This document shows positions 18,995 to 48,413 of a stretch of 64,000 bases of DNA, one piece after another. This DNA is from Alphaproteobacteria bacterium (GTDB lineage Bacteria; Pseudomonadota; Alphaproteobacteria; MPNO01; UBA830): NCBI GenBank assembly GCA_965243135.1, contig OZ251539.1, forward strand, positions 1,952,001 to 2,016,000, read 5' to 3'. The notes under the pieces are model-generated. The model was not told where the DNA came from. It saw only the letters and a list, made by a program, of their open reading frames with translations, and ran no database searches. Within the stretch, counting starts at the first letter, position 1. Each line of letters opens with the position of its first letter. Made by a program: the position numbers and the translations under genes.

Positions 18995-19488
18995 GCTGTG
19001 TAACTACCCCCGAACTGCCGGCCGCGCGAGACCGTTCCGCGGGATTTTTTCGCGGCGGCGCTCGCCGTTCGAGAGGAGCGTGACGCTGAGGACTACCCCG
19101 TATAGCCCTGTTGTGAGCAGTCACGATAATCGGCAGTTTCAGGTGCAAAATAATCGAGGGCGTCTGATCCACGCCTGGAAGGATGGCGTTTCCGTTTCCT
19201 CTCACGCCTGAGGGAAATCGGGCCAGAAAATACTGTTTTCTTTCAGCATGGTTCTGCAGCACCATGGTTTGGCCCTGAAGGCAACCAGTGAACTCGCAGG
19301 ATGGCCGCTGCCAGAACCTATCGTATTTTGATCGAATTCTCCAAATGTTTCCATCGATTATCATGTCCGTGCACACCCTGTCTTCGCGCCGCGACGCCCG
19401 AACGCGGAACGGTTATGTCGGCGAGCGGCGCGAGGGCGGGAGAACCACCCTCGAAGTTACATGCTACGGGGCGAGCAGGCCATGAGCG
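18995..19488 (-). mobile_element. IS110-derived MITE copy 1, interrupted
   Basis: Ends match the IS110 ends at 33301 and 34982. Confidence 0.8.
19112..19375. mobile_element. 264-bp TGT...ACA MITE
   Basis: 6-bp TSD CCCTGT; imperfect 21-bp TIR ending GATAATCG; decayed copies at ~47235-47365 and ~50412-50540. Confidence 0.8.
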
Positions 19489-19944
19489 TTTAACCGGGCA
19501 GCACTGCGCCCCGACGTCTTCGTCCGCGTTACGCGCCCGGTAGATGCTCGCGAAAGAGTCGCTCCACGCGCGTGCGCGGCTCAATGAAGCGGCGCGGGCG
19601 CGGTGGCCATGGTTCGACGACTTGTCCCATGGCGCGAACCGGGAGCCGCCGCCGCGCGATTGGAGAACTATTCGCAATTTTCGTCGATTATCTGAGAGAA
19701 CGATCTGCGCGGGCCGCGCTCCAGTCTTCGTAAGCGTTCGGTCGTGGGGTGGCGACATTGAAGCCCTGCCTTCAGGCAGGGGCTTCAGCCAGACCTCCTT
19801 GATCGGGAGAACGCGTTCGTTTCGGGTACTGCCGCGGTCTGCGCCGCCCCTCTGGTTGGCGGCCCGGTAGCAGGTTCCTCGCGAAATCTCGAAGAGTAAG
19901 CGTTCGGGCCGAGAAGCGGGCTGTCGAGCCTGGCGAATCGCCTA

Positions 19945-21153
19945 GTGCATTGTCGTAATAAAAAGATAGACATAGTCCACTATATTTTCTATTGAGTGTC
20001 TTGATACAGGCTACAGAAAGGCACTCCCATGTACAAGAAGTACATCGTCCGGCTGACGGCTGAGGAACGCGACACTTGCCACGAGACCATCCGCAGGCTG
20101 AAGGGGAGCAGCGAGAGGGTCCGCCGCGCCCAGATTCTGCTGAAGGCGGACGCCGACGGGCCGGCGTGGACGGACCGGAAGATCGCGGAGGCGTTTTCGT
20201 GCCGGACGAAGACGGTCGAGAATGTCCGCCAGAATTTCGTCGAGGGGGGTTTCGAGCGAGCCCTGGAACGGAAGCGGCGGGAGACGCCGCCGGTGCCGAA
20301 GATCCTCGACGGCGAGGCGGAGGCCAGGGTTATCGCTCTGTACCAGGGGCAGCCTCCGAAGGGGTACGCCAACTGGTCGTTGCGGTTGCTGGCAGGTGGT
20401 GGAACTGGGGATCGTGGACGCGATCAGCCACGAAACGGTGAGGCGGACGCTAAAAAAAACGGCTTCACCTGCAAGAGGAAAGTCCGGTACTGGGTAGCCC
20501 GACGCCGACGCGGAGTTCGTCGCGCGCCAAGTGCTTGAAATTTATGGAAAACCTTACGACCCCGAGCGTCCGGTGGTCTGCATGGACGAGCAACCCGTGC
20601 AGCTCATCAAGGAAACGCGCGTGCCGATTCCCGCCACCAAGGATCATCCGCGACGCGTCGACTACGAGTACGAACGGGCGGGCACCGCGTCGATCTTCAT
20701 GTTCTGCGAGGCCCTGTCCTCATGGCGCCGGGCGACGGCCCGCAAGCGCCGGACGAAAGTAGACTGGGCCGAGGAAGTTGCCGACCTTCTGGAGGGCCGT
20801 TACGCAGACTGCGAGAAGATCACCTGCGACAACCTCAACACCCACACGCAGGGGGCTTTCTACGAGGCGTTCGAACCCGCGCGGGCGCGGGAACTGGTCA
20901 AGCGAATCGAGTTCTGCTACACGCCGAAGCACGGGAGCTGGCTGAACATCGCGGAGAACGAACTCAGCTCCATGACCCGGCAGTGCCTGCGCCACCGTCG
21001 GCTCGGCGACATCGAAACCCTCCAGGCCGAAATCTCGGCGTGGGCCGTCGACGTCAACGAGCGGCAGCGGGGCGTGGACTGGCAAATGAAAGTCGACGAT
21101 GCCCGTTGCAAGTTGAAGTCGGTTTATCCTAAGATTGTATTGTGATGAAGCAC
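19945..21153 (+). mobile_element. IS630-family element
   Basis: TA duplication at 19943-44 and 21154-55; HTH ORF from 20029 and DDE ORF 20531-21145 (CMDEQP, CDNLNTH, PKHGSWLNIAE); A-run slippery site ~20452. Confidence 0.88.
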
Positions 21154-21174
21154 TAGGCTTGGACACTCTTCTTT

Positions 21175-21408
21175 GCTGTGTAACTACCCCCGAGCTGCCG
21201 GCCGCACAAAACCGTTCCGCGAATCGAAGGTTTTTCGCGGCGGCGCTCGCCGTTCGAGAGGAGCGTGACGCTGAGGGCTGCCCCGTATAGCCCTGTCTTC
21301 GCGTCGCGACGCCCGAACGCGGAACGGTTATGTCGGCGAGCGGCGCGAGGCCGGGAGAACCACCCCCAAGTTACATGCTACGGGGCGAGCGGGCTCCGAT
21401 CATGAGCG
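21175..21408 (-). mobile_element. IS110-derived MITE copy 2 (complete, 234 bp)
   Basis: Flanked by TTT on both sides; empty site ctcttcttttgttc at ~54269-54282. Confidence 0.85.
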
Positions 21409-22456
21409 TTTGTTCTTGTATACGGCCGCCATGGCGGTCGAATCTGCACGCGCGCTTTCCGAGACCGAGCTGTCGGGCGACGGCCAAGCTCTGGCTGCGG
21501 CGTGCCGAACGAATGCGGCTCTCTGCCAGGCGCTGGAGAGCGCGAAAGCGGAGAAGTTTCGCCGCGACGCCGAGAGGTGGCAGGGAGCTTTCCACCGGGC
21601 GATGGCGCTGATCCTGAAAAAGAGACGCGAAGCACCGCCCCGAGAGACGGCAGAGAACGAGAGTCTGAAGTCCCGCAGCCGCAAGTTTGCCCGGGAGTTG
21701 TTCGGGCGCCGCAGCGAGCGGCAGCCTGCGGCAACTGGCCGACGCCGGGGGCGCAGTCAGGGAACGCTGTCGCACGGCCGCACGCCGCACCCCGAACTGC
21801 CCGTTCGCGAGGAGGAGTCGATTCCGGACGAGCGCACGTGCCCGGACTGCGGCAAGGCCTGGATCTCAAACGGTTGGAAGGACGCGGAGCTCGTCGAGGT
21901 CGAAGTCGCCGCCCATGTCCGGAGGACGGAAGCGGCTGCGCCCGACCTGTACCTGCCGACCGGAAAAGGAGGTTGTCGGCCCGGCTCCGGTGCGGCTGTT
22001 TCCGAACACTCGGTACGGAGTTTCCGTCTGGGCGTTCGTCCTGGCGGAGAGGTACGGCCTGCACCGTCCGCTGCGTTCGGTCTGCCGCGCGCTGGGCCAG
22101 CACGGGCTCGCTATTGCGCCCGGCACGTTGGCGGACGCCCAGCGACGGTTCCTACGCCTGGCAGCTCGACGAAGAGAGCTCCCGGCGCCTGTCGGAGGCG
22201 CCGATCGTTCACGGCGACGAGACAGGGTGGACGGGAGTTGGGCGAGGAAGACGGCGGCAACGCCCGCGCCTGGGCCGCCCGGGCGGCGGACGCGGTCCGC
22301 ATCGTTGCCGTCGCGCAGCGCGGAAGCCGCTCTTGAACTGTTCAGGGGTCTCGGCTCGCCCGAACAGGCGGCTCACCTGGTCTGCGACCGCTACTCCGCC
22401 TACCGGAAGCTGGCGCGAGTCATGGAGGGGTGCATCGTCCTTTCATATTGTTGGGT

Positions 22457-22860
22457 TTATGTTGTGGATCCAGTTATGTTGCGGAATGGTTGCAACGTAC
22501 TGAAAAACAATAAAATCAGATCCATTTCCGCAACATAATATTTTGCAGTGCATCAAGAAAGGCCGTAAACCTTTTGTTCTCTTTCCACGGGCGAACCGAC
22601 TCTGCGCAATGCCTGAGACAGTTCAGGCGTTCCTCAAGCAGCGGTGCGGCGCGAGGCTATGGCGCCGTGATCGACAAACAGATCCTCGAACATGGTCGTA
22701 TCTCCTTGTGGTCGGAGACATGACCATGGCAAACGAATGCGAATCCAAATATTATGTTGCGGAAATGCGTTTGGTTCCGTTGTTTTTCAAGTCGTTAGCG
22801 CTCCTCCGCAACATAACTGGATCCGCAACATAAGCCCAGTTATGTTGAATTCAACATAAC
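22457..22860 (-). mobile_element. Internally deleted RIT (recombinase-in-trio)-like element
   Basis: ~85-bp inverted ends with repeated TTATGTTG; RBS plus MFEDLFVDHGAIA..APLLEERLNCLRHCAES at 22693; TGGGT on both flanks; empty site ~55351-55365. Confidence 0.7.
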
Positions 22861-25561: not shown

Positions 25562-26141
25562 GCCAGAATGTTCTCCGGATTGACGGCGTTCTCGTGCCAT
25601 GCGGTAGTAGCCGGTCACCAGAGCGCCCCTCCCCTGCGCCGCGGCGAAAAAGGACGAACCGGGATGCTCCGCCTGGACCGCGGCGCTCGCCACCAGCCGC
25701 CGGGTCAGCCGCTTGTCTCCCAGCGGCGCATCTCCGAACTCGTTCTCCGCCCAACTCTCCCGGTCGAGACCGCCCGCCGGGCCGAGCGGCACGCTAACCG
25801 GCGACGGCACGCCGAGCAACCGCCGCCACTTCCGGTCCAGCGCGTACATGTAGATCGACTTCGCACCGACCGGCGTCGCGCCCGGCGCTCTTGCCGACAA
25901 GTTGCCAGTTGGCGGCCCGCAGGCTGGCGCCGTCGTGGCGCGACAGGTCGACGAAAGTCTCCACCAGAAGCGGACGGTGCCCGTACCGCTCTTGGAAGTC
26001 CCGACCGACCCTGCCCAGGCAAAGGCCGAGCGCCGTCGAGGCGAGGTTCTGGCAAGGTGCGCGGAAGCGGCTCAGGCCGAGAACGCGGTGCAGATGCCGC
26101 TCCCGCGTCTCCCTGTCCCACCCGGGCGTCCCGCGCCGCAA
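25562..26141 (-). pseudogene. DUF4338-IS4 (IS50-like) transposase fragment
   Basis: CQNLASTAL...YGHRPLLVETFVD...GASLRAANW, then WAENEFGDAPLGDKRLTRRL. Confidence 0.75.
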
Positions 26142-26149
26142 GACGCTGC

Positions 26150-30002: not shown

Positions 30003-31550
30003 TCAGACGGTCTCGAACTCGAACCCGACGATGTTGCGTTCCTCCCGGCCGAACTCCACCCCGATCAGGTGGACCTGTACGCCCGGACGCCGGTACTTGT
30101 CCGCGTAGCCGCGCTCCCGAATCTGCGCCAGAGCCCGGCCTTCCGGCTTCCCGTCCGCGACCTTGAACTCGAACAGGTAGACGTTGCCGCCGTACAGGAC
30201 CGTCAGGTCCGAGCGGCCGCGCGCCGTGCTCTCCTCGGCACGGACGTCCATCCCCGCCGCCACGAAGTGCGAGTAGAACACGCTCGCGTAGTGCGCCTCG
30301 TAGCCCGCCATGCCCGTGTTCGCGTACCACTCGTTCGGGATGCTCGCCAGGAACGCCCGGAACTGCCGCTCAAGGCCCGCGAAGTCGTTCGTCCGCAACA
30401 GGCGGCGCAGCTCCCGGCTCTCCGCCGCGACCGCGACGTCCGGCACCATCGCGCGCAGCAGCCTCCTGTTCAGGCTGAGTTTCACCTCGTAGTTCGGGTA
30501 GTCCAGCCGGTAAAGAAGCGCGTCGTCGTCCAGCTCCTCGTCGGCGATGGTCAGGTAGCCGGTCTGGAACAAAAGCGCTTCGGTCGAGATGTCGTCGACG
30601 TCGAAGGTCGAGAGCAGCTCGTCGTCCGCGATCATGCCTTCCAGGGCCGGCGCCGCGACCCGGCGCCGCGCCAGAAGGTCGGCGAGGAAGGTCGGCGTGC
30701 CGGTCCGGAACCAGTGCGCCTCGAACTGGCGGCGCCGGAAAAGCAGCAGGACATCGTACGGGTTGTAGAGTTTCTCCGCGCCGCGCCAGTTGTAGCCGTT
30801 GTACCAGCGGCGGACCTCGTTCCGGTCCAGGCCCTCGAGTTCCGGGGCGAAGACCGCGTCCAGTTCCGCGTCCGTGTAGCCGCAGATGGACGAGAACTCC
30901 GGCTCCAGCGTGATGTCGATCAGGTTGTTCAGGCCCGAGAACAGGCCCGCCTGCGAAAACTTGCTCACCCCCGTCAGGAAAACGAAACGGAGCTGCTCGT
31001 CGCACGCCTTGATCACCCCGTACAGGCTGCGCAGGAAGTCGCGGTTGGCCCGCGCCAGTTCCCGGTCGCCGAGCGCGTCCAGGATCGGCTTGTCGTATTC
31101 GTCCACCAGAACGACCACCTGCCGCCCGGTGCGCTCGTGCAGGGCCTCGATCAATTCCCAGAAACGAACCGACGCTTCGACAAGGCACGGTTCGAGGCCG
31201 GCGCGTCTTTCCGCCGCCGCCAGTTGCCTTTCCACGGTTACGCGAACCCCGTCCGGGGCGCGGAAATCGCCCCCTCTGCTGAAATCCAGCCGCACGACCG
31301 GATGGCGCGCCGACCAGTCCCACTGGTCGTGCACGGCGAGGCCCCGGAACAACTCCTCGCTTCCCTCGAACAGCTTCTGCAGCGTGTCCACCAGCAGGGT
31401 CTTGCCGAACCGGCGCGGACGCGACAGGAAATAGTACTTGCCCCTCTCGACGAGGCGGCGCATATGGTCCGTCTTGTCGACGTAGTAGCAGTCCATCCCC
31501 CGGATCTCCCGGAGGGAGGTCATCCCGGTCGGCAGCATGCGTTTTTCCAT
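30003..31550 (-). CDS. AAA-ATPase-like / PD-(D/E)XK nuclease protein, copy B
   Basis: RPRRFGKT, DEYDKP, EAHYAS, GRSDL..YLFEFK; upstream TTGACC-18-TATTCT-6-ATG. Confidence 0.9.
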   Translation of the reverse strand: MEKRMLPTGMTSLREIRGMDCYYVDKTDHMRRLVERGKYYFLSRPRRFGKTLLVDTLQKLFEGSEELFRGLAVHDQWDWSARHPVVRLDFSRGGDFRAPDGVRVTVERQLAAAERRAGLEPCLVEASVRFWELIEALHERTGRQVVVLVDEYDKPILDALGDRELARANRDFLRSLYGVIKACDEQLRFVFLTGVSKFSQAGLFSGLNNLIDITLEPEFSSICGYTDAELDAVFAPELEGLDRNEVRRWYNGYNWRGAEKLYNPYDVLLLFRRRQFEAHWFRTGTPTFLADLLARRRVAAPALEGMIADDELLSTFDVDDISTEALLFQTGYLTIADEELDDDALLYRLDYPNYEVKLSLNRRLLRAMVPDVAVAAESRELRRLLRTNDFAGLERQFRAFLASIPNEWYANTGMAGYEAHYASVFYSHFVAAGMDVRAEESTARGRSDLTVLYGGNVYLFEFKVADGKPEGRALAQIRERGYADKYRRPGVQVHLIGVEFGREERNIVGFEFETV

Positions 31551-32029
31551 CCGGCTAGAATAGGCTGCCGCAACGGAAACGGTCAATTGGTTCGAGGCGT
31601 TTGCCACTGCGCCCTTTTTCGCGCCTGCTTCCGCTTTCCGGCTGCCTGAACGCGGGCCTGTCCAGCCGGGAGAGCGCCGGGGCGAGGCGCCGCTCGTGCA
31701 GCTCGGCGGCGCCTGTCGCGCGCGACGGCAACTATGAGGGTTTGTTTCGCCGTTTGGCGCCCCCTCAAGCTTGAAGCGCAACATGCATGGCGGCCGGCCG
31801 ACCTGCAGCGGAAAGGTCAGGCGGTCAATCTCCGTCGATGAACGGCAAGGAGACATGGCCAAAGGCTGCCGACCCGTCGCCCTGAAGGGCAGGCCGAACC
31901 GCGAAGAAGCCGCTCAAGAGCCCGTCCTCGACGCCGGAAACTGCGTCGCAGCCGACGGTCGCGGACGCCGGCGACCGCAATAGTCGCTCGACTTCGAGGT
32001 CTCGCCGGCGGCGAACGGCGTCAGGTGCC

Positions 32030-33262: not shown

Positions 33263-33297
33263 TGTCAGTAACAGATGATATGTCCGGTCCATGTACC

Positions 33298-34985
33298 AAA
33301 CTCTCATGATCGGCGCCTGCTCGCCCCGTAGCATGTAACTGGTGGTTTTGCTGGCGTCGTGCCTGCCCGACGATCATTGGGTTAGACTGTTGGCAGGCAC
33401 GTGGACGATTTCTTTGCGGTGAACGCTGGTTTCCCGAAACCAAACTGTACCCGGACCGACGGCCTCGAGCCCCGTATTGTTCCCGGCCCCGCGCTGTGGA
33501 CGCACAACAAAATGATCCGCGCCGAACCGGTGCGTGACTTGCGTTCCGAAGGTCCCCCGCCCAACTCTCACATGGAGGCGTCGATGCTAACCGACAAAAT
33601 GCATGTCGTCCACCCGTGCGCAGCGGGTCTGGACGTTCACAAGATGGAGATCACCGCGACGGTGCGATTATGTTCGCCGGAGGGCGGCGATCCCGAGACC
33701 GAGACCGAGGCTTTCAGCACCCTGGAAAGCGGAATGCGCGATCTCGTGGCGTGGTTGCGTGGTCACGGCGTGACCGCCGCCGCGATGGAGGCGACCGGCT
33801 TGGGAGCTTCCGCGCTGGAAGACGCCGGCATCCACGTTGACCTGTTGCACGCGCAGCACGTCAAACAGGGGCCGGAAAACGGATGTCGCCGACAGCATGT
33901 GGCTGGCCTGCCAGTTCGGTCTGGCGGCTCCGAGTCTGGTCCTGCCGCGCGAGTTCCGGCGTCTGCGCGTGCTGAGTCGTCATCGGCGACGGATGATCGA
34001 CGACTGCGCCCGACTGCGCAACCGCGTTCACAAGATCCTGGACCGCGACGGCATCGGCGGGGTGCTCTCGGACGTGTTCGGCGTCAACGGGATGCGCATC
34101 CTTCGCGGAATGGTCGACGAAGAGCCGCGGGAGGAAATCGTCGCGTCCCGTCATGTTGCGGACAAACGCGATACGCGAAGCCCTTGCCTACAACCTCGCC
34201 CCGTACAGTCGGCAAATTCTTGGCGACTTGCTGCCACGACTACGCGAGCCAGAAGATCGCATGCTACGACAAACTCATTCGGGAAGGCCTCGACGGCTTC
34301 GAGAAGCAACTTCTTCTCTTGCAGACGATCCCCGGGCAGGGAATCGGCCTGCGCTATCCTGATCGGTCCCGACATTGGCGTATTCGGTTCCGCCTTGCGC
34401 CGCCTGGTCCGGCGTGTGCCCCGGCAACGACAAAAGCGCCGGCAAGCGGCGCAGCGGACGAAGCCGTAAGGGCAACCCGACGCTGCGCAAGGTGCTGGTG
34501 TGCGCACGGCGCAGCGCGAACCGACAACTGTCAGTTCCAAGGCTACCACAAAGCGCTTCGGGTCCGCTGCGGATCGCGCCATCGTCGCCACTGCGCACAA
34601 GCTGCTTCGCGTGGTCTACTGCGTCCTTCGGACCGGCAAGCCTTACCGGGACCCCGAGACCGACTACGAAGCGATGATGGTGAAGCGCAACGCTCCTCGG
34701 TGGATCCGCATGCTCGAAACGTACAACGTCGCGGGACGACGAAGGTGCGTGTCAAGCCGCAACGGGCGGCGCGGCGGCAACGGCGGGCACGGGCGCTGCA
34801 GGCAGCCTGAGCGCTGCGACATAACCGTTCCGGGTTCAAGCGGCGCGGCGCGAAGACAGGGCGTTACGGGGCAGCCCTCAGCGTCGCAATCCTGAATTCT
34901 CGAACGGCGAAGACCGCCGCGAAAAAATCTTCGATTCGCGGAACGGTTTCGTGCGGCCGGCAGCTCGGGGTAGTTACACAACAAA
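33298..34985 (+). mobile_element. IS110-family element; recombinase pseudogene ~33584-34810
   Basis: AGLDVHK, AMEATG, RKTDVAD (DEDD), PGNDKSAGK; AAA at both junctions; long noncoding ends. Confidence 0.85.
33355..33575 (+). ncRNA. Candidate IS110 bridge RNA region
   Basis: Noncoding left end with stems; CACAACAAA (33503-11) equals the element's right-end junction 34977-85. Confidence 0.45.
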
Positions 34986-36226: not shown

Positions 36227-38114
36227 GCCCCAATTTCCAGCGCGCTTCCCGGCGGCGCCCCGGCCGCCTCGAACGAACCCGCCCGGACGCTCAGCAGCGC
36301 CGCCCCCTTGCGCGCCGAAAACCGGCGCCCGTCCTCCCGGCTGCGCGCGCCCCCGAATTTCGGTCCCCGGCTTTCCGCGCCTCGGCCGTCTCCAACGTCG
36401 CGTCCATGCCCCTCGCCGTCCGCTCGTCCGAAAAGTCGCGCGCAGGCGCGGCCACATGAGGCTCGGCGCGCCGCCCGCCGAAACCCGCTCCCGCGCCTGT
36501 CCGTTGATCGTTTCCGCGAAGTCGAGCGACGCCTCCGACCGCGCCAGGCCGATGGCGGGTGTCGCCGCAAGCCCGCCGCCCGCCTCCGTCCGGCCTCGAG
36601 GCCCATGGCGAAGCCCCGGCCGTCCGCGCCGTCCGTCAAAGCCTCGTTCCGGCCGGAGGTCAGCTTGACGTCGTACCGAGTCGCCTGCGCGTCCATTATG
36701 GAAGTTGTCGCCGAGGAACGCCATCCCGTGCACGCCCGCGTCGACCCCCGACAGCTCCATCTCGCTGCCGGAACCCGACATCTCCGCCGAACCCTGCAGC
36801 CCGCGCGACGACACGCCGAACCGCCCGTCGCCGTTCGTCGCGAGATCCGTCCCCGCCCGTGCGCCATACTGGCGGTTTGCGCGTAGTGACGGCCAACCCC
36901 TACCGCTCCGTCCCCGCCCGCACGCCGTACCGGCGGTAGTCGAAGGCCGCGTCCGGTCTTCGCTTTCCGCCCGCCGCGCCCGGCCGCCGTTGCCGTCCCG
37001 CGCCACCGACATGCCCTCCCCGCAGGTCGGCAGCCCGTTCATCGTCGACAACGCCGACGGCAGCGCCTCGCAGAGGCGGCGGCGCGGCGTCGCCGTTCTT
37101 GAGCGCCCGCCCCTCGCGGCAGGCTTCCAGGCTTGCATACGGGGCATTCTGTCCGGGGTTCGCCGCGCCGGCGCCGGAAGGCGCGGACGGAAAACAGCCG
37201 ATCTCGCGACCGCTGTCCCGTCTCGGAGACCCGGACGACGACTCCTTGCGCGCCAAGTCCGCTGACGACGGCACCCCCGACGGCACCCAAGCTCTCCGCC
37301 GCGTCCCTCCCGCGCGAGGCGGCCTTCGCCGTCGTCGAGACCCCGGCGCACGGTCACCAGGGTCTCGCCCTCTGAGCGAAAGACTCGCGCCGTTGGCCCC
37401 TGCCCTTTGGACCGACCGCGGCGCTGCCGCCGCCGTCGACCGCCGCGGCCGCGCCTTCGCTGCCCGTCACCATGCCGAGACCGCCGGCCGCCGTTGACCG
37501 GGGGCCGGCCGGCGCCCGCACGGCCGCGTCCGTCCCGCCCGTCGCTGTGCCGTTCACCGCCACGGCCCGCTGTCGTAGGCGGTCCCGCCCCGCCCCAGGG
37601 CTGCGTTCGCCGCGTAGACGCCGGCGCCGGTCGCGGGCGTCCCCGCGGCCTGACGGCCCCGTTGTTGGCGTCGCGTAGCAGGGCCGTCGTCGCGGGAGGA
37701 GCCTCCGGTCACGGCGATGTTGCCCGGGTTGTAGCGGTTCGGCAGCGCCCGCGCCGCTGTCTTGCAGTCGTCGGAGAACGCCGCGTCCGCGTCGTCCAGT
37801 GCGGCGTCGAGGCCGGCGTCGTCGCCCGTCGCCAGCGCCTTCAAAACCGCCTCCTCCGCCTCGGAGAAGGTGCTCGTCGGAATTTGCGGCAGCACGGCTC
37901 TGCAGGCGTTGTCGAGCGCGCTGCGCCTCGTCGCGGCTCGCCTTCCGTGCCGTCGGTGTCGGCGATGACGGCGATGACGGCGATGACCGCGCTCGCGGTC
38001 CTCGTCCTCCAGCGCCGCCCTGAATCGCGCCGCGAGGGCGTCCCCCTGCGCCTTGACGCTCGCAAGAGAGCCGTCGGCGAACGTGGCTGCTGACCCAACC
38101 TCTATGTAATTTTT
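36227..38114 (-). pseudogene. Second copy of the decayed autotransporter, without the IS
   Basis: Near-identical to 15591-17126 + 18773-18994. Confidence 0.85.
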
Positions 38115-38193
38115 GCTGTGTAACTACCCCCGAACTGCCGGCCGCGCGAGACCGTTCCGCGGGATTTTTTCGCGGCGGCGCTTGCCGTTCGAG

Positions 38194-40112
38194 GTAGAGT
38201 CGAGGACTGGCGCGTTAGTTTTAGGGTCCGGTGGATGTTCCGTCGCTTTCGCTCCGGGCCTCAGTCCGGCTCCCTTGGCCACGTTTCCAGTCCCCGCTCG
38301 TCAAACCGGACGTGCGGATTTCCCGCGCTTCGGTCAAGATCATGCCTTCGCCCACGGAAAGTTCTTCGTTCGCGTTTTAAGGCGCGTAAGACCTATTTCA
38401 TTCCATTCGTTTGGAAAGTGCGCATACTTTCCTTTACGCACCTTGTGCTTGCGACAGAACCATTGGCGCAGCCGACGGGCTGCGTGTAGATCAACGGCGG
38501 TGTAGGCAGGGCTAACCTGTCCCAATACGAAGTAATTTCCCCATCCAGCTATTACCCTGTTGAGGCGTTTTACCATCTCGTCCGGTTCAAGTTGTCCGTT
38601 CCTTTTCGCCGTCATTTCGCTATCGGCTTATGCTCTGGACGCTTGCCGGGTTGGGACGCGTTCCAATGTAGGATCGTCCCGTGTCCCGACGGTAGTTGCG
38701 TCCAATTCGGTACCCGAGGTACTCTAGTGGTTTCTCAGGTACTCGTAAGCATTGGGTCTTCTCCGCGTTTATCGGCAGTTTCAGCCTTTCCATGAGTGCT
38801 GCCGCCAGCATCTTGCTGGCCGACGCTTTGCCGAGCACTACGCTGTCGTCGGCGTAGTTGACGATCTTCGCGCAGAAGTTTTGAGCGTGCACCTTCCAGC
38901 CCAGAATGAAACGACGCATGGTTGCTGAGTAAAGGGGAGATTGGCGCCCCTTGCGGGGTGCCTTTCCTTTCCCTGCGCGCCCGGTTCGTGCGGCGTTTGC
39001 CGCCTTTGCCGTCGTCCTCCTCCACTGCCATTTCCAGCCATGCCTTGACCCAGCCCAGCATTCGTCCGTCGCTTACGCGACGGGCGACGGACTTCATCAG
39101 TTCCACATGAGGGGCCGAAGTAGTCGGACAAGTCCGCGTCCACCACCTCATGGTGGCCTTGTTTCAACAACTGGTGCACCCGATTGACCGCGTCGAGTGC
39201 GCTTCTTTCCGGTCTGTAGGCGTACTGCTCCGGTTGCAGGTCGGCTTCGAAGATCGGCGACAGTATAAGCATCGCCGCCGTTTGCGCCACCCTGCGCAGG
39301 GGATCCCCAGGGGCCGGAATTTTCCGCGTTGTTTCTTCGGGATCAGAACTTGCCGTACCGCGGCCGGTCGGTAGGTTCCTTCTTTCAGGTCCCGCGCCAG
39401 TTCCTCAAGCCACTGGCCTACTCCTTGCGCTTCCGCTATCGTCGTTCCGTCCGTCCCGGCAGTTCCTCCGTTTCGACGGACGTCCTGCCAGGCTGTGAAC
39501 AGCACTTCGTAGCTCCATACCTTGTCGCATAGCGAGTAGAACCGGAAACTCGGGGATTCCTTCGCTTGTAACGCTGTCTGGAGTCTCCGAACCTTCTCCG
39601 AGGCTGCTAGGCTTCTGCCAGTCCTCATGTCCTTTCCTCCTTCCAACGCTTCTCTTGACCCAAGGCCCCTTTCCTCCACCGGCGTTACCCGGCTTCCCCG
39701 GTACTACGGGCCTCTCCGCCACCCTGCCGGCCCGGCCTGCCCCTCGCGGGGTTCCGGTTGACTCGTGCGCGTCACCGACAGGGCTTCCCGTGTTGCTGCT
39801 TCCTTCATCTTCCATGCGTGCCGACATCACTACCCCGGCGGAAACGGTCGGTGCTCTTGTCGTTCTCTTCCCGACCGTCGGCGGCTTTCCTCTTGCTCCT
39901 GGAGGGTCAGCTTCCGCATTACGCGTTTCGAGGCCTGGTTCACTCGCGTTTCGGCCCGCATGTTTGCTGAGCGGCCTTCGCCGCCCTTTTTGTCCAGAGT
40001 GCTTCAGCCTACATCGTTACCTCCGTAAACCGCCCTGGCTGCTACCAACCGGAACGACAGTTGTTGGGTGGGATTCGCACCCACCAGAAGAAAGCGCCTT
40101 TCCACGGCGCAC
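38194..40112 (-). mobile_element. Group II intron (1919 nt)
   Basis: 5' GTGCG, 3' CTCTAC; domain V-like GCGGGAAATCCGCACGTCCGGTTTGACGAGCG. Confidence 0.9.
38340..39628 (-). pseudogene. ltrA: Group II intron reverse transcriptase/maturase, frameshifted, no endonuclease domain seen
   Basis: RPLGIP, QYAYRP, DADLSDYF, GTPQGAPISPLLSN, YADD, GWGNYF. Confidence 0.85.
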
Positions 40113-40261
40113 AGGAGCGTGACGCTGAGGACTGCCCCGTATAGCCCTGTCTTCGCGCCGCGACGCCCGAACGCGGAACGGTTATGTCGGCGAGCGGCGC
40201 GAGGGCGGGAGAACCACCCTCGAAGTTACATGCTACGGGGCGAGCAGGCCATGAGCGTTTA

Positions 40262-41560: not shown

Positions 41561-41696
41561 GTCCGGTGATCGGAGGCCCCGAGGCGGCGTCCTCGGCCGG
41601 GCGGCCCGTCAAGCCGCGCGACGAACCGGCGGCTGCCGCCGCAGGCCGAACCGCGGGCGGCGTTCTTTCGCGGAGGCGGCCGTGACGGGAAGCCGT

Positions 41697-43235
41697 TCAG
41701 GCGGCCTCGCAGTCGAACCCGACGACGTTGCGCTCCTCGCGGCTGAACTCCACCCCGATCAGGTGGACCGAACGTCCAAGATGGCGGTACTTGTCCGCGT
41801 AGCCCTTCTCCCGCAGTTGCGCGAGCGCGATCCCCTCCCGCCCGCGCTCCACCACCTTGAACTCGAACAGGTAGACGCGCCCGCCGGCGCGGATCGCCAT
41901 GTCGGCGCGCCCCCGGCTGCCGCTGTCCTCGGCCACCGGCTCGAGGCCCTCCATCAGGAAGCAGCTGTGGATGACGCTCGCGTAGTGGGCCTCGTACTTC
42001 GCGACCGGGCTGCTCGCGTACCACTGGTGCGGGATGGCGGCGAAGACGCCGCGGAACAGGGTTTCGAGACGCTTGAAGTCGTTCGCCGCCAGCAGTTCGC
42101 CCAGCCGCAGGCACGCCGTCTTCTTGCGCGCCTCGACCGGGAGCAGTTCTTCCAGCAAGGCCTCGCCCAGGCTCTGGCGCACCTCGAGGTTCGGGTAGTC
42201 CAGCCTGTAGCGCCCGTCCTCCTCGCCGGCGATGGTGAGGTAGCCGGTCTGGAACAGAAGCGCCTCGACCGAGACATTGTCCACGTCGAAGGCCGAGAGC
42301 AGGCTCTCGCTGCCGATCATGCCGTCCAGGTCGGGAGTGGGCAGGTCGCGGCGCGCCAGCGTCTCGACCAGGAAGGTCGGCGTGCCGCTATGGAACCAGT
42401 AGTTGCCGAACTTGCGTTTGTCGAACAGCAGCAGGAGGCCGAACGGATTGTAGAGCTTCTCCGGCCCGCACCAGTTGTAGCCGTTGTACCAGCGGCGGAT
42501 CTCGTCCCGGTCCAGGCCCTCGAGTTCCGGGGCGAAGACCGCGTCCAGTTCCGCGTCCGTGCAGCCGCAGATGGCGCCGTAGCGCTCGTCCAGCGTGATG
42601 TCGTTCAGGTTGTTCAGGCCCGAGAACAGGCCCGCCTTCGAGAATTTGCTCACCCCCGTCAGGAAAACGAAACGGAGATGCCTGTCGCAAGCCTTGATCA
42701 CCCCGTACAGGCTGCGCAGGAAGTCGCGGTTGGCCCGCGCAAGCTCCCGGTCGCCGAGCGCGTCCAGGATCGGCTTGTCGTATTCGTCCACCAGCACGAC
42801 CGTCCGCTGTCCGGTGCGCTCGTGCAGCGTCCTTATCAGGCGCCGGAAACGGACCGATGCCCCGGCGGGACCCGGTTCGAGACCGGCCTGCATCTCCGTC
42901 TCTTCCAACTGCGCTTCTACGGTTTCCCGAACCCCGTCCGGAGTGTCGAAATCGCCCACGCCGCTGAAATCCAGCCGCACGACCGGATAGCGCGCCGACC
43001 AGTCCCACTTGCCGTGCACGGCGAGGCCCCGGAACAGCTCCTCGCTCCCCTCGAACAACTCCTGCAGCGTGTCCACCAGCAGGGTCTTGCCGAACCGGCG
43101 CGGACGCGACAAGAAGTAGTAATCTCCTCCTTCGACGAGGCGGCGCAGATGGTCCGTCTTGTCGACGTAGTAGCAGTCTCTCGTCCGGATTTTCCGGAGG
43201 GAGGTCATGCCGATCGGAAGCATGCGTTTCGTCAT
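41697..43235 (-). CDS. AAA-ATPase-like / PD-(D/E)XK nuclease protein, copy C
   Basis: Same motifs; C-terminal type ending GFDCEAA. Confidence 0.9.
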   Translation of the reverse strand: MTKRMLPIGMTSLRKIRTRDCYYVDKTDHLRRLVEGGDYYFLSRPRRFGKTLLVDTLQELFEGSEELFRGLAVHGKWDWSARYPVVRLDFSGVGDFDTPDGVRETVEAQLEETEMQAGLEPGPAGASVRFRRLIRTLHERTGQRTVVLVDEYDKPILDALGDRELARANRDFLRSLYGVIKACDRHLRFVFLTGVSKFSKAGLFSGLNNLNDITLDERYGAICGCTDAELDAVFAPELEGLDRDEIRRWYNGYNWCGPEKLYNPFGLLLLFDKRKFGNYWFHSGTPTFLVETLARRDLPTPDLDGMIGSESLLSAFDVDNVSVEALLFQTGYLTIAGEEDGRYRLDYPNLEVRQSLGEALLEELLPVEARKKTACLRLGELLAANDFKRLETLFRGVFAAIPHQWYASSPVAKYEAHYASVIHSCFLMEGLEPVAEDSGSRGRADMAIRAGGRVYLFEFKVVERGREGIALAQLREKGYADKYRHLGRSVHLIGVEFSREERNVVGFDCEAA

Positions 43236-43239
43236 TCGA

Positions 43240-43890
43240 AGAGGGTAGGCCGCCGCGCCGGAGCCGTCAAGAAGTCGGCGGCGGCAGGCGCGTCCCCTGG
43301 CGCGGCAAGCAGCCGGCAGTTTCCGCAGCGGTACGGCGGGGAAAGCGCGGAGGCGAGCGAAGCTGTCGCTCCGCGGAAATCCTGCTCCGCCGAGGCGAGC
43401 GCGTTCGACGCGCTCAACGCGCGGCCTGGAGGCCGCGGGCGAACGCCGACGGAAGACGCCGCCGCCAAAGGCGACGCGCGTCGACAACGACGCCGGCTTC
43501 GCGAGCCTCGACGGCAAGGTCGACGCCCTCGCCGCGGAAACCGGGGCCGACGCAACGCGACGGCAAGCGCCCTCGCCAGGGAAAGCCGCGCGCCGACGAT
43601 TGTCGCGGCAGGCCTCGCACCTGCAGCTGGTTCGGCGCCGGAGGCGCGCGACGACATGCGCCGCAAGCGGCGAGACGCCTGAACGTCGGGCAGCGGTTCC
43701 GTCGAACGAGAGCGTCGTCCGGTCGAGCGAGCGGACTTCCGCCGCCGAAAACCATGGCTCGTTCGAAGCCGTCAACCGAAGCGGCTCGCGAAAGCGAAAC
43801 CGGAAACGGCGGCGGCGGGCGTTGGCCCCCGTTTTTGAACTCACCCGCCTGACCTCTCCGCAACATGAAAACGGTCGATCAGCCACCACG
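43240..43890. repeat. ~650-bp upstream block shared (inverted) with 58905-59560
   Basis: Direct sequence similarity; includes a decayed NDAGFASLDGKVDALAAE segment. Confidence 0.75.
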
Positions 43891-43929
43891 CGCGTTGCGC
43901 TTCAAACTTGAAGGGGCGATCCGGGGAAG

Positions 43930-44063
43930 GCGGCTTAGGACCGGCGATCTCGGTTGCTTCGACGAAGACGGGTTCCCGACCGTCACCGGGCGAACCCGGG
44001 ACGTCATCATCCAGGGCGGGGTCAACATTTCTCCGCTGGAGATCGACAACGCGCTGGTTTCTG
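43930..44063 (+). pseudogene. AMP-binding enzyme fragment
   Basis: RTGDLG.FDEDG..TGRTRDVIIQGGVNISPLEIDNAL. Confidence 0.75.
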
Positions 44064-44170
44064 TGCGCCGTGGAAAGGCGCTTTCTTCTGGTGGGTGCGA
44101 ATCCCACCCAACAACTGTCGTTCCGGTCAGCCAGGGCGGTTTACGGAGCGTAGGCTGAAGCACTCTGGAC
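44064..44170 (+). mobile_element. Group II intron 5' fragment
   Basis: GTGCGCCGTGGAAAGGCGC... same as the 5' end at 40112. Confidence 0.85.
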
Positions 44171-44173
44171 AAA

Positions 44174-44617
44174 CGCTCATGATCGGCGCCTGCTCGCCCC
44201 GTAGCATGTAACTGGTGGTTTTGCTGGCGTCGCGCCGCTCGCCGACATAACCGTTCCGGGTTCGGGCGTCGCGGCGCGAAAACAGGGCTATACGGGGCTG
44301 CCCTCAGCGTCACGCTCCTCTCGAACGGCCAGTGCCGCCGCGAAAAAATCTTCGATTCGCGGAACGGTTTTGTGTGGCCGGCAGTTCGGGGTAGTTACAC
44401 AGCAAACGCTCATGATCGGCGCCTGTTCATCCCGTAGCATGTAACTTTGGGTATGGTTCTCCCGGCCTCGCGCCGCTCGCCGACATAACCGTTCCGCGTT
44501 CGGGCGTCGCGGCGTGAAGACAGGGCTATACTCAGCGTCACGCTCCTCTCGAACGGCGAGCGCCGCCGCGAAAAAATCTCGCGGAACGGTTTCGTGCGGC
44601 CGGCAGCTTGGGGTTAG
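44174..44617 (+). mobile_element. Head-to-tail dimer of the IS110-derived MITE (copies 4 and 5)
   Basis: Junction GTTACACAGC-AAA-CGCTCATG at 44394-44414; second unit lacks an intact right end. Confidence 0.85.
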
Positions 44618-45556
44618 CCCGCAACCCGAGTCCAGCCCCCTGATTCGCTCTGATGCGGGTTAGGGTCCGCACCAAACGGAAGGCGGGCAGCAGGACACAA
44701 ATCGGGGGCGCGATTGCGCTTCGCTGTCGTCGGCACCTTGCTGGCGGCGCTCCCAACCGCTGTCCCGTGGCGCAATCTTCCGCGCGGCGGCGCCGGGCGC
44801 GGCCGGCGGTTCGCCCTCTGCGGGGCGGACGAAGCGCCGGGCGCGGGCGTAAAGCCGAGGTAGCGGGAAGGCGTTCTCGGCCCTCGCCGGCGTCGGGTTC
44901 GCGGAGGACGGACCTGACGTTCGGGAGTCGGGAACAGGGGCGGTTCGAGAGACTGCGGAGCGGCGAATGGACCGGCGCTGCGGCGGCGGCGGAGACGGCG
45001 CGCGTCAAACCCTCGTTCCGGGCCGCGTTCGCCGCCCGCCGGCTGACCGTTCCCGGTTTCCGAACTCCCCAGCGCCGGCGAAGCCGGTCCGGACGTCGCG
45101 CCCGCGCGTCCCCAGGAGTTCGGGGCCTGCCGGGCGAGGCCCGCCGGCGCGGGGACTGCCTGCCGACGACCCACGCTCTGCCCCCCGCCTACGCTTTCCG
45201 CCCGGCCCTTCCGGCCAACCGCAACGGATTCCGGGCCCCGGCTACGTCCCCGCCGTCTTGGTCGCCCTCGACGAGGCCGGGCGCTTCTGCGACAGGCTCG
45301 ACGAACGCCTCGACCGCGCGGCATGGACGGAACTCGCCGGACGGCCCATGTTCGCCGGCAAGAGCCGGGCGCCCGCGCAAGCCCCCGGGGAGGAACCGCC
45401 GCGGAAACTGCCGGCTGCTTCTCGCGCGACGCAGACAGGCCTGCCGCCCAGGGCGAATTCAAGAATGGCCATTGCCAAGCGCTGCCCGCGAGGAGGAGGC
45501 GGCAGCGGCCTTTCGCGAAGGCGCCGCCTGCGTCCGAACGGGAACGGCGCCCGGCT

Positions 45557-47098
45557 TCAGACGGTCTCGAACTCGAACCCGACGATGTTGCGCTCCTCCC
45601 GGCCGAACTCCACCCCGATCAGGTGGACCGGCACGCCCGGACGCCGGTACTTGTCCGCGTAGCCGCGCTCCCGAATCTGCGCCAGCGCCCGCCCCTTTCC
45701 GTCCGCGACCTTGAACTCGAACAGGTAGACGTTGCCGTCGTACAGGACCGTAAGGTCCGAGCGGCCGCGCGCCGAGCTCTCCTCGGCGCGGACGTCCATC
45801 CCCGCCGCCACGAAGTGCGAGTAGAACACGCTCGCGTAGTGCGCTTCGTAGCCCGCCATGCCCGTGTTCGCGTACCACTCGTTCGGAATGCTCGCCAGGA
45901 ACGCCCGGAACAGATTTTCGAGGCCCGCGAAGTCGTTCGCCCGCATCAGGCGGCGCAACTCCCGGCTCTCCGCCGCGACCGTGACCTCCGGCGCCATCGC
46001 CTTCAGCAGAAGCGCGTTCAGGCTGCGCTTCACCTCCTGGTTCGGGTAGTCCAGCCGGTAGAGGCGCGTGTCCTCGTCCCGCTCCTCGTCGGCGATGGTC
46101 AGGTAGCCGGTCTGGAACAGCAACGCCTCGACGGGAATGCGATCGACGTCGATGGCCGACAGCAGGTCGTCGTCCGTGACCAGATCCTCCAGGGCCGGCG
46201 GCGCGAACCGGCGCCGCGACAGAAGGTCGGCGAGGAAGGTCGGCGTGCCGGTCCGGAACCAGTGCGCCTCGAACTGGCGGCACCGGAAAAGCAGCAGGAC
46301 ATCGTACGGGTTGTAGAGTTTCTCCGCGCCTCGCCAGTTGTAGCCGTTGTACCAGCGGCGGACCTCGTCCCGGTCCAGGCCGTCGAGTTCCGGGGCGAAG
46401 ACCGCGTCCAGGTCCGCGTCCGTGTAGCCGCAGATGGACGAGAACTCCGGCTCCAGCGTGATGTCGATCAGGTTGTTCAGGCCCGAGAACAGGCCCGCCT
46501 GCGAGAACTTGCTCACGCCGGTAAGGAAGGCGAACCGGATATGCGCGTCGCAGTCCTTGACGACGCTGTAGAAGCCGCGCAGGAAGTCGCGGTTGGCCAG
46601 CGCCCGTTCCCGGTCGCCGAGCGCGTCCAGAATCGGCTTGTCGTATTCGTCGACCAGAACGACCGTCCGCTGCCCTGCGCGCTCGTGCAGCGTCCTTATC
46701 AGGCGCCGGAAACGGACCGCCGCCCCGGCGGGGCCCGGTTCGAGGCCGGCCAGCCGTTCCGTTTCCTCCAACTGGTCTTCCACGTTTTCCCGAACGAGGT
46801 CCGGGGAGTCGAAATTGCCCCCGCCGAAGCTGATCCGCACGACAGGATGACGTATCGACCAGTCCCACTTGCCGTGCACGGCGAGGCCCCGGAACAGCTC
46901 CTCGCTTCCTTCGAACAACTCCTGCAGCGTGTCCACAAGCAGGGTCTTGCCGAACCGGCGCGGACGCGACAGAAAATAATATTGACCGCCCTCGACAAGG
47001 CGGCGCACATGGTCCGTCTTGTCGACGTAGTAGCAGTCCATCTCCCCCCGGATTTTCCGGAGGGAGGTCAAGCCGATCGGGAGCATGCGTTTCGCCAT
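45557..47098 (-). CDS. AAA-ATPase-like / PD-(D/E)XK nuclease protein, copy D
   Basis: 513-aa ORF; C-terminal type GFEFETV. Confidence 0.9.
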   Translation of the reverse strand: MAKRMLPIGLTSLRKIRGEMDCYYVDKTDHVRRLVEGGQYYFLSRPRRFGKTLLVDTLQELFEGSEELFRGLAVHGKWDWSIRHPVVRISFGGGNFDSPDLVRENVEDQLEETERLAGLEPGPAGAAVRFRRLIRTLHERAGQRTVVLVDEYDKPILDALGDRERALANRDFLRGFYSVVKDCDAHIRFAFLTGVSKFSQAGLFSGLNNLIDITLEPEFSSICGYTDADLDAVFAPELDGLDRDEVRRWYNGYNWRGAEKLYNPYDVLLLFRCRQFEAHWFRTGTPTFLADLLSRRRFAPPALEDLVTDDDLLSAIDVDRIPVEALLFQTGYLTIADEERDEDTRLYRLDYPNQEVKRSLNALLLKAMAPEVTVAAESRELRRLMRANDFAGLENLFRAFLASIPNEWYANTGMAGYEAHYASVFYSHFVAAGMDVRAEESSARGRSDLTVLYDGNVYLFEFKVADGKGRALAQIRERGYADKYRRPGVPVHLIGVEFGREERNIVGFEFETV

Positions 47099-47708
47099 TC
47101 GAAGAGGGTAGGCCGCCGCGCCGGAGCCGTCAAGGAGCCGGCGGTCGCAAGCAGGGCGAGGAACGGGGCGGTCATGGCCAAGCGCTGCCCGCGAGGCGGC
47201 AGCGGTGCGGGAAGCGGCAGCGTCGGGAGGTCAAGTGTAAGCGGTAACCGGCAGTTTCAGGTGCAAAGCCGCGCCTGAAAGGAAGGCGTTTCCGTTCCAC
47301 GCCTGGTCAGGCCGGAAAATGCCGCGTGCTTTCAAGCGGTTCCGCAGCACCATGTCGTGGCCCGTCAGCGTTCGCGTAAGCGTTCGCTACCCGGAGGACG
47401 AAAAAATTTCGTCCCGGGACCGGACACGGGATCCTTCGCCCCTTTTGCTGCGACCGACGGACGAGGGGCTTTGCCGCCGGCAACGGCCCGGCGGGACGAG
47501 GCGCGCCCGGAAGCGGAAACGTCGCGCGGAGGCAGGCCGGCAAGCGACGTTACGGAGAACGCAGCAGGCGCGCCGAGGCGGCGCGCAACGAGCCGCCTGA
47601 AGTCGGCCTCTTCGGCGAACGAGCGGGCCGCCCGCGGCGAAGCCGAGGGAGCGCATCGACGAACGCGGCAGTCGCTCGACTTCGATGTCTCGCCGACGGG
47701 GAAGGGCG

Positions 47709-48030
47709 TCAGGCGCCCTTCGTTCCCGCCCCGTCGTCCGTCGGCGTCGTCCGTCGGCGTCGTTCGTTCGGCGACGGTTTCCGGCGCGGCGGTCTGGCAG
47801 CGCCTTGAGCGCCGTTATGCTCTCCTCGTGGCGGCGTTCTTCGGCTTCGCGCTGCTGCTGCATGGCTGCGCGCTGCTGCTGCATGGCTGCGCTCTGCTGC
47901 TGCGTAGCCGCGCGCTGTTGTTGCCCGCGTTCGTCGCTGGCGCGGACGCCATACGCCGACGGCCGCGACAGCGGCCGCGAGCGCGTTGACGGAAGCGACG
48001 GCGAGATTAGCGATCACGAAGGCACTCATG
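47709..48030 (-). pseudogene. Small coiled-coil protein with 21-bp tandem repeats
   Basis: MSAFVIANLAVASVNAL..; QQQRAAM repeats; EAEERRHEESITALKAL. Confidence 0.5.
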
Positions 48031-48178
48031 AGCGTCCTTTCCGGAGACCGGAGACCCGCAGCGCCGGTCGTCAAGGGAGACGTTTGCGCGAGCCGTTTGC
48101 GCTGCGCCACTTTTTGTCGGCCTGCCGCCCGGACGACGCCCCGCAAGGGCCTCGCGGGTGCTCGGTCTTCAGAACAAA

Positions 48179-48413
48179 CTCTCATGATCGGCGCCTGCTC
48201 ACCCCGTAGCATGTAACTTTGGGTATGGTCCTCCCGGCCTCACGCCGCTATCATGTGCCGACATAACCGTTCCGCGTTCGGGCGTCGCGGCGTGAAGACA
48301 GGGCTATACGGGGCAGCCCTCAGCGTCGCGCTCCTCTCGAACGGCAAACGCCGCCGCGAAAAAATCTCGCGGAACGGTTTTGCGTGGCCTGCGGCTCGGG
48401 GTAGTTACACAAC
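48179..48413 (+). mobile_element. IS110-derived MITE copy 6
   Basis: AAA|CTCTCATGATC...GTTACACAAC|AAA. Confidence 0.85.

Follow-up and report, generated by a model that had tools for sequence, protein, structure and literature searches.

Classical bacterial MITEs, or miniature inverted-repeat transposable elements, that arose from insertion sequences (ISs) with DDE transposases are miniature, non-coding, multi-copy internal deletions that depend on their parents; they have terminal inverted repeats and target duplications of fixed length, and the protein is all that they need. In the IS110 family, as described for IS621, a DEDD recombinase works with a bridge RNA encoded in the left end of the element, whose left target guide (LTG) and left donor guide (LDG) have the sense of the left target's and left donor's top strand and include the core; insertion makes no target duplication, and a donor of 22 bp works with bridge RNA in trans (PMC11208160). 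Elements of the IS110 group have a short right end and a subterminal repeat of only 2–3 bp (PMC11208160). A miniature relative has been described for ISPpu9, an IS110-family element of Pseudomonas putida KT2440: MITEPpu9 has ISPpu9-like ends without transposase and bridge RNA, forms minicircles and is proposed to move with the transposase supplied in trans (PMC12288879). Full-text literature searches, which did not cover supplements, turned up no further paper that names a non-autonomous IS110 or IS1111 element. Here, we describe a large family of this kind from a 64,000-nucleotide stretch of contig OZ251539.1 (hereafter the window; G000:C1:1952001-2016000), which belongs to an alphaproteobacterial genome assembled as a single contig of 6.10 Mb with 65% G+C (G000). 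The public sequencing runs that contain this stretch are sponge metagenomes, and the relatives of the organism are uncultured Alphaproteobacteria. We consider it highly probable that the repeat is a non-autonomous internal-deletion derivative of a 1,685-bp IS110-group element, copied with recombinase and bridge RNA provided in trans.

Like MITEPpu9, the repeat is short, lacks both recombinase and bridge RNA, has IS110-like ends and occupies sites away from the IS, and given this precedent it is not new in kind; the family is much larger, and it has no cargo. Whereas MITEPpu9 carries the small RNA (sRNA) gene ssr9, exists in 8 copies (5 of them still beside a tnp gene) and inserts into repetitive extragenic palindromic (REP) sequences (PMC12288879), the present element is simply an internal deletion in which no RNA gene could be detected; it is dispersed in about 60 copies, its left half-site is 6 nt long, it forms dimers, and it has persisted beyond its parents. 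It is small, non-coding, multi-copy and dispersed, and has its ends in common with its parent IS, as a MITE should. In contrast to classical MITEs, it has neither terminal inverted repeats nor a fixed-length duplication, and it would need a guide RNA in addition to the protein: the termini CGCTCATGA... and ...ACAGCAAA are unrelated to one another, with only a 7-bp subterminal repeat, and an invariant CAAA stands at both junctions with no variable duplication. Given the absence of terminal inverted repeats, “MITE-like” is the accurate label for the repeat, and we use MITE below as shorthand. The system as a whole shares with IS621 the DEDD recombinase, the left-end bridge RNA, the same-sense LTG and LDG and the lack of a target duplication (PMC11208160). 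It differs from IS621 in a core that lies within CAAA rather than CT, in having no right-target signal in 28 flanks, in a predicted RNA that places the donor guide in a multi-branched domain, in a long right end (~170 nt), in a 7–8-bp subterminal inverted repeat 33 nt inside the left end, and in that the recombinase copies of this genome are dead.

For the census of the family, we searched the genome with blastn, using window positions 44174-44406 as the query. This gave 86 matches, made up of 39 near-full copies (at least 205 of 233 nt covered), 21 partial copies (100–204 nt), 17 shorter fragments and 9 matches on IS copies. Dispersed MITE copies number about 60, and the length of the element is 220–247 bp; near-full copies are 70–100% identical to the query (median 84.8%), and independent copies have a median pairwise identity of 82%, that is, a divergence of ~18%. 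One pair is 99.6% identical and lies in unrelated flanks, and the last transposition events were therefore fairly recent. Across 28 full-length copies, the element starts with C(G/T)CTCATGATCGG and ends with GTTACACA(G/A)CAAA. In blastn comparisons, nt 3-72 of the repeat match window positions 33303-33373 and nt 70-233 match 34817-34985, with 1,443 bp between them. In other words, the MITE consists of nt 1–72 of the 1,685-bp IS joined to its last ~169 nt, with nt 73 to ~1516 deleted. The first-pass annotation of the window, made from the sequence without database searches, had put the left part at 50–65 bp, which proved too short at ~72 nt; it had correctly likened the right part of ~170 bp to the right end of the IS (34817-34985) and had rightly noted the loss of the recombinase and of most of the left non-coding region, since the deletion spans both the recombinase gene and the bridge RNA region.

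That annotation had listed six copies in the window and a stub. All of them exist, as blastn confirms, with the correction that the copies it placed at 18995 and 38115 represent one duplicated locus. These are an interrupted copy at 18992..19488 (minus strand; blastn matches 18992-19112 and 19376-19480) and a split copy at 38112..40257 (minus; 38112-38193 and 40113-40257, the latter found by blastn to 40249), which belong to one segmentally duplicated locus whose flanks and element are 99.7% identical; both are members of a subfamily that lacks 6 bp close to its left terminus. Full-length MITEs are found at 21172..21408 (minus; 91% identical to the reference copy, left flank AGAACAAA) and at 48179..48416 (plus; blastn match 48181-48416), the latter inside a member of another repeat family, empty paralogues of which occur at other places in the genome. 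The remaining two form a head-to-tail dimer on the plus strand, in which unit 1 (44174..44406, left flank GGACAAA) belongs to subfamily A and serves as our reference copy, and unit 2 (44407..44614), of subfamily B, is 76.5% identical to it and has a degenerate right terminus. The stub, at 744..764 (minus), is a left-end remnant: it comprises the first ~21–27 nt of the element, CGCTCATGGCCTGCTCACCCC, after ACCAAA. It is weak by BLAST alone (blastn E 0.4 and 4.9), but it shares the 6-bp-deleted left end with the genomic subfamily.

Both interrupted copies have themselves received insertions. The 264-bp repeat at 19112-19375 is unrelated to the MITE and represents a second miniature family, with 19 blastn matches genome-wide including itself (72–91% identical); ~6 bp are duplicated where it inserted. 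The split copy is occupied by a group II intron of ~1.9 kb (38194-40112, minus), sense-oriented in the MITE, which starts with GTGCG and ends with CTAC and is recognized by the Rfam model RF02003 for D1-D4 at 39944-40086 (76.3 bits). Three minus-strand open reading frames (ORFs) of the intron have no Pfam match, and its reverse transcriptase may be degenerate. A similar 5' intron fragment seemingly lies just upstream of the dimer, at ~44063-44140.

The parent in the window, which we call ISwin, is a degenerate IS of 1,685 bp at 33301..34985 (plus) whose recombinase frame is broken by several frameshifts. Its left-end part that is kept in the MITE (33301..33372, plus) includes the right-donor side CTCTCATGA... 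and the left subterminal inverted repeat TGTAACT; the non-coding right-end part that is kept (34817..34985, plus) closes with the right subterminal repeat AGTTACA, the left donor (ACAAC) and the AAA core. Between them lies the recombinase pseudogene, at 33584..34800 (plus; its end is approximate), with fragments of the DEDD and Tnp domains in three frames. The N-terminal, RuvC-like DEDD domain (PF01548) is matched by window fragments at 1.2e-8 and 1.8e-4, in a scan of the own genome at 3.9e-8, and in an intact relative at 1.8e-24; the C-terminal Transposase_20 domain (PF02371) is matched by a window fragment at 1.6e-7, at six places in the own genome, and in the relative at 1.7e-22. The two IS110 transposase domains are thus both present, as fragments, in the parent element. 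Intact relatives occur in two genomes of the same genus (G002 and G004), where their ORFs match PF01548 and PF02371 and, at 2e-81, NF033542 (“IS110 family RNA-guided transposase”). The assignment of the pseudogene copies to the IS110 family therefore stands by homology. The window ORF at 33401-34810 has no Pfam match because the gene is frameshifted. In line with IS110 behavior, the element has no terminal inverted repeats, makes no target duplication and has a short core common to donor and target; compared with an empty site, a filled one has gained the element and a single CAAA. In species-representative genomes, a scan recovered 79 loci, which lie in Alphaproteobacteria, Vicinamibacterales, Pseudomonadales and Rhodobacterales metagenome-assembled genomes (MAGs).

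The parent departs from the IS110 group in its right end. Instead of a short right end with a 2–3-bp subterminal repeat, it has one of ~170 nt and a subterminal inverted repeat of 7–8 bp, which reads TGTAACT/AGTTACA in G000 and TGAAACAG/CTGTTTCA in relatives; intact relatives also keep the ~170-nt right end. The long right end and the 7–8-bp repeat are an IS1111-like trait on an IS110-type layout.

No intact recombinase frame was found in the genome, where each of the three full-length IS copies needs several frame changes. ISwin and a second copy, IS33 (genome 331574-333263), are ~100% identical over 1,685 bp, identity falls to background just outside, and the flanks are unrelated; the third copy (2995520-2997177) is ~87% identical, evenly over ends and interior. 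ISwin and IS33 carry the identical frameshift after ...HAQHVKQ, yet they occupy different sites, both after ACCAAA, which matches their own LTG. This pattern indicates that an IS with its own guide but a defective recombinase was moved in trans, by the protein of another copy.

The deleted interior also appears to contain the guide. When the left ends of ~20 sequences from related lineages were aligned, a conserved non-coding region emerged upstream of the start codon, in ISwin at 33400..33575 (plus) and thus inside the deletion, with a predicted structure that is supported by covariation. The consensus of 20 related left ends has 29 pairs, with 97.4% of cells paired; changes on both sides were seen in 10 of the 29 pairs, a number reached by 0 of 500 column shuffles, while structures slid by 1–3 columns gave 0–3. 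The LTG, defined as the segment after CCCGA, matches the left flank of its own element over 6–9 nt in 16 of 17 lineages, among them ATCTAAA, ACTAAA, CACCAAA, GACAAAA, GTTGAAA and CCTAAAA; at the CAXXVO locus, the match is 4–6 nt, and in a truncated G004 copy, analyzed in a separate five-copy alignment, it covers CAAA only. In the window, the LTG GAAACCAAA lies at 33436..33444 (plus), in the same sense as the left flank ACCAAA of ISwin. The LDG, which follows GGACG, is identical to the right end in all lineages in which both could be read, through five states (CGGCAAA, GCAGCAAA, CAGCAAA, ACAACAAA and ACAGCAAA); in ISwin, the LDG CACAACAAA at 33503..33511 (plus) is identical to the right end of the window IS, ACACAACAAA. 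This layout, in which the left end encodes a bridge RNA upstream of the recombinase and the LTG and LDG match the left target and the left donor, is that of the IS110 group as opposed to the IS1111 group. Because the bridge RNA region and the recombinase both fall inside the deletion, the MITE carries neither enzyme nor guide. The bridge RNA was inferred from custom alignments, since no Rfam bridge RNA family was matched: at the gathering threshold, Rfam reported the group II intron only in the whole window, and over the IS nothing credible appeared with E up to 10. For the bridge RNA and the short core that the first-pass annotation had named for IS110 recombinases, the data here give a left-end RNA with covariation, agreement of LTG and LDG with flank and end, and a core within CAAA. 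Separately, the second IS copy of G002 (L025/L031) contains a ~1.45-kb insertion with a 7-bp duplication in its bridge RNA region, away from the LTG, which is probably an IS of a different type.

The insertion sites agree with these guides on the left side. After removal of shared flanks and dimer junctions, 38 independent left junctions remained, with the left-flank consensus RACAAA; CAAA is present in 32 of them, against a background of 0.15% per position. The most frequent flanking hexamers are GACAAA (11), AACAAA (9) and ACCAAA (6), and each corresponds to an LTG variant of the ISs, namely that of IS371, of IS299 and IS3825, and of ISwin and IS33, respectively; this agreement lends indirect support to mobilization in trans by the parents' machinery. 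Among the IS remnants, the LTG reads AAGACAAA at 3708777-3710741 and AAAACAAA at 2995520 and 3825504, while ISwin and IS33 have AACCAAA. The right flanks are without signal: across 28 of them, none of 20 positions exceeds 0.32 bits. Paralogues in which both flanks abut, with a gap of 1–6 bases, were found for 9 of the 26 loci tested; six such empty sites were compared base by base, and they show exact insertion without duplication beyond the shared CAAA. The MITE at genome position 1376718 has ~20 empty paralogues. The window copy at 48179 has them as well; these contain one A beyond the expected sequence, probably because such sites are paralogous and do not represent the ancestral one. Such exact empty paralogous sites show that insertion occurred by real transposition. 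The earlier claim that the junctions have AAA and no longer target site duplication held as regards the duplication, which the empty sites exclude; the AAA, on the other hand, is only part of a longer signal, RACAAA in the flank and ACA(G/A)CAAA at the element end.

The left-sided signal extends beyond this genome. In G078, a MAG labeled Alphaproteobacteria that contains an intact, recently amplified relative (198 first-look candidates; right ends 100% identical in 40 of 40 among the matches listed, L046-L079), the flanks show a left-side motif only, RACAAAA, which equals the LTG of that element. Left-dominated recognition is therefore a property of the clade and not a result of decay. It fits the “half-match” activity reported for IS621, in which a match to half of a bridge RNA loop suffices (bioRxiv 10.64898/2026.08.31.748434). 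As a separate observation, both IS flanks are conserved in two MAG lineages (L038-L045, L086, L089, L090), with ...CCAGCTCATATAAA on the left and CCGGACAGCAGTGGACT... on the right; there, unlike in G000 and G078, the IS clade targets a specific repeated host sequence on both sides.

Three other readings of the repeat and its spread have to be weighed against descent from the IS and transposition in trans. The copies could have been multiplied by segmental duplication or recombination of a few loci, and this does hold for the pair at 18992-19488 and 38112-40257, one duplicated locus at 99.7% identity; several other copies share flanks as well. For the family overall, this is contradicted by the 38 independent left junctions that remain after de-duplication, most of them in unrelated flanks, by boundaries that are base-exact and always follow CAAA, and by the finding that the shared flanks are other repeat families with exact empty versions. 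We thus find a purely segmental origin barely credible, and the shared-flank explanation that the first-pass annotation had named as its own possible refutation does not apply to the family as a whole. A second possibility is that the 235-bp repeat is a pre-existing, REP-like host repeat into which an IS110 element of 1,443 bp inserted, so that the apparent IS ends would be the two halves of its target. Insertion into repetitive extragenic sequences is known for IS110-family elements (cited in PMC11208160 and PMC12288879), 1,443 bp would be a typical IS110 length, and the same two points of the repeat, ~nt 72 and nt 70, border all three full IS copies. Against this, ISwin and IS33 are identical right through their repeat-like ends, whereas independent copies of the repeat differ by ~18%, which identifies the 1,685-bp element as the unit that moved. 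In addition, the LDG is identical to the repeat's outer right end, the LTG is identical to sequence beyond the repeat and not to its interior at nt ~72, and related ISs elsewhere have homologous ends without any such repeat family. We therefore regard a targeted host repeat as very improbable; on this evidence, the repeat ends are the ends of the IS110 unit itself.

The remaining alternative concerns function: the ~170-nt right end might encode an sRNA or contain a regulatory or protein-binding site that aids spread or retention, as the Ssr9 module does in MITEPpu9, which carries an sRNA gene (PMC12288879). Conservation of this part among copies is good, a 12-bp inverted repeat (AACCGTTCCGCG...CGCGGAACGGTT) lies in it, and the intact relatives have kept a right end of the same length. 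We nevertheless think such a function unlikely, as neither strand shows excess folding energy (z -0.03 and -1.32), an Alifold alignment of 29 copies shows no convincing compensatory changes, Rfam gives no match, and the counts of promoter-like and terminator-like sites at the dimer are 0 and 0.

Descent by internal deletion and mobilization in trans, which we favor, would work as follows. The joined ends of the MITE would constitute a donor site, in which the right end ...AGTTAC-ACA(G/A)C-AAA meets the left end C(G/T)CTCATGA..., including the 7-bp subterminal inverted repeat, presumably in a circular intermediate. Recombinase and bridge RNA would come in trans from full-length elements; the RNA's donor loop would read the joined ends, its target loop would read the short left half-site RACAAA, and recombination at some position within the shared CAAA would leave no target duplication. 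Because left-side recognition dominates, element ends and LTG-coding DNA would be targeted as well: a further element could enter a resident copy at its right end (ACAACAAA), giving head-to-tail dimers of unrelated units, or the DNA that encodes the LTG in the parents.

The dimers fit this scheme. The RE-AAA-LE junction (right end, core, left end) that the first-pass annotation had seen in the window is exact at 44404-44407 and is formally the donor, or circle, junction LD-core-RD (left donor, core, right donor). Right-end/left-start junctions of this type occur at 5 of the 52 left junctions genome-wide, comprising three MITE-MITE dimers, a degenerate dimer at genome position 39548 and a right-end fragment that abuts the IS at 2997177. 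Tandem duplication of a single copy, as a recombinase by-product or by replication slippage, has to be considered for these, because in an Escherichia coli assay of IS110 systems, 3 of 96 colonies carried tandem cargo repeats (bioRxiv 10.1101/2025.10.25.684509), tandem IS110 products also appear in surveys (bioRxiv 10.64898/2026.08.14.744561), and G078 contains head-to-tail arrays of identical full-length ISs at a spacing of 1,768–1,769 bp, up to four in a row, which makes such arrays characteristic of the clade. In the three clear dimers of G000, however, the two units are only 76.5% (window), 83.8% and 89.2% identical, and in two of the three the first unit has its nearest relative, at ~97% identity, at another locus. 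Since the units differ, belonging to different subfamilies, and the relatives of the first units lie elsewhere, the dimers look like second insertions beside a resident copy, and we give duplication little chance. A simple reason for such re-insertion is offered by the right end ACAACAAA, which includes the target hexamer AACAAA; half-matching by the donor loop is an alternative cause.

The same left-sided reading may have turned against the parents. Two MITEs (genome 3710377-3710615 and 3825626-3825870) interrupt the left ends of IS remnants at precisely the point where the LTG's CAAA is followed by CTGT; the uninterrupted LTG sequence is present in the IS copy at 2997034. The two are 89% identical to each other and closer to copies elsewhere (97.5% and 92.7%), and they therefore look like independent hits on guide-coding DNA. 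If the target is read almost only on the left, LTG-coding DNA would itself be a target, which leads us to a broader idea that we put forward tentatively, as possible rather than probable. The LTG-coding DNA in every bridge RNA gene of the clade could be a full target, into which miniatures have inserted at least twice, destroying their parents' guides, while right ends would be a second pseudo-target on which head-to-tail arrays with intact donor junctions are built; the clade would then have a built-in self-targeting brake, and non-autonomous derivatives could drive the autonomous element extinct. If this were general, half-site-reading RNA-guided ISs would all carry such a brake, and the extinction of the autonomous element is the state found in this genome.

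Several observations weigh against mobilization in trans, or limit it. The genome-wide search proposed by the first-pass annotation for copies and an intact parent was productive for the copies (the 86 matches above) and not for the parent: the protein of an intact relative and family scans detected recombinase fragments only, at four loci in the genome, so that trans-mobilization needs a helper that has been lost or lies in unsampled strains. The conserved ~170-nt right end is not accounted for by a donor with short ends. Some MITE copies share flanks through other repeats or segmental duplicates, and not all copies are independent events. A right target guide and an RDG (right donor guide), read by eye, gave no consistent pattern across lineages, and there is no right-flank signal for them to match; only G000 shows a tentative, discontinuous RDG (TGA..GCGTT, window 33535-33545, against AACGC..TCA), and this fits the MITE-type left end CGCTCA better than the CTCTCA of the ISs themselves. 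Finally, as the dimer places the junction in the chromosome, reads across RE-AAA-LE cannot prove circles, and the contigs of four public runs are too fragmented to span the dimer and reveal circles or presence/absence variants.

With all four recombinase loci frameshifted, the family is probably no longer active in this genome, barring a helper in unsampled strains. A search of 78 genomes of the order detected the MITE in G000 and in none of the other 77; two further matches are short, with E ~1e-3, and probably due to chance. Two exact-pattern scans of metagenome contigs returned 0 stretches each. An analogous family was sought in G004, where there are only 5'-truncated solo right ends with no adjoining left end. 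These solo right ends (L112-L117) start at IS nt ~1531–1534 and end at the normal right terminus, and could be one-ended products or decayed copies.

Several features of the family recur in recent IS110 studies, in which a half-loop match suffices, modules are duplicated in tandem, boundary matches involve the left donor only, and there is no target immunity, as here (bioRxiv 10.64898/2026.08.31.748434, 10.64898/2026.08.14.744561). The elements in those studies are full or expanded and have a recombinase; the available text of both describes neither a miniature family that lacks recombinase and guide nor insertion into the guide DNA of a parent. The MITEs provide natural evidence for half-site targeting, for dimer formation by re-insertion and for insertion into the parent's guide DNA. 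Since bridge RNA in trans already works in the laboratory on a donor of 22 bp, we see this as a neat natural confirmation rather than a surprise. Bridge recombinases are under development as programmable genome-writing tools, and this genome holds a natural record of what such systems may do: a donor with a few dozen bases per end was copied ~60 times, apparently with recombinase and guide RNA from elsewhere. Six bases of left half-site would be enough for integration in vivo, which bears on off-target risk, and element ends and guide-coding DNA act as pseudo-targets that can lead to tandem arrays and self-insertions. The genome also preserves a dated fossil series of the decay of an RNA-guided transposon, from parents through defective full-length copies moved in trans to miniatures at 70% to 99.6% identity.

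The rest of the window is repetitive in other ways. Two very long ORFs at 4596-15822 (plus; 2,001 and 1,787 aa) have internal repeats spaced ~5 kb apart and no Pfam match; they may not be real, as high G+C makes long chance ORFs common. A 102-bp tandem repeat at 52378-53595 lies inside a TPR-rich ORF (52108-55281, minus), and a ~1.6-kb unit occurs three times at 59615-63992, overlapping an ORF at 58123-61434 (minus) with a weak match to DruA (Druantia). Five paralogous genes with AAA-ATPase_like (PF09820) and PDDEXK_9 (PF08011) domains are packed into one 50-kb stretch, with MITE copies between them: three at 30003-31862, 41697-43889 and 45557-47098 (minus), and related stretches at 1-720 and 48737-50296.

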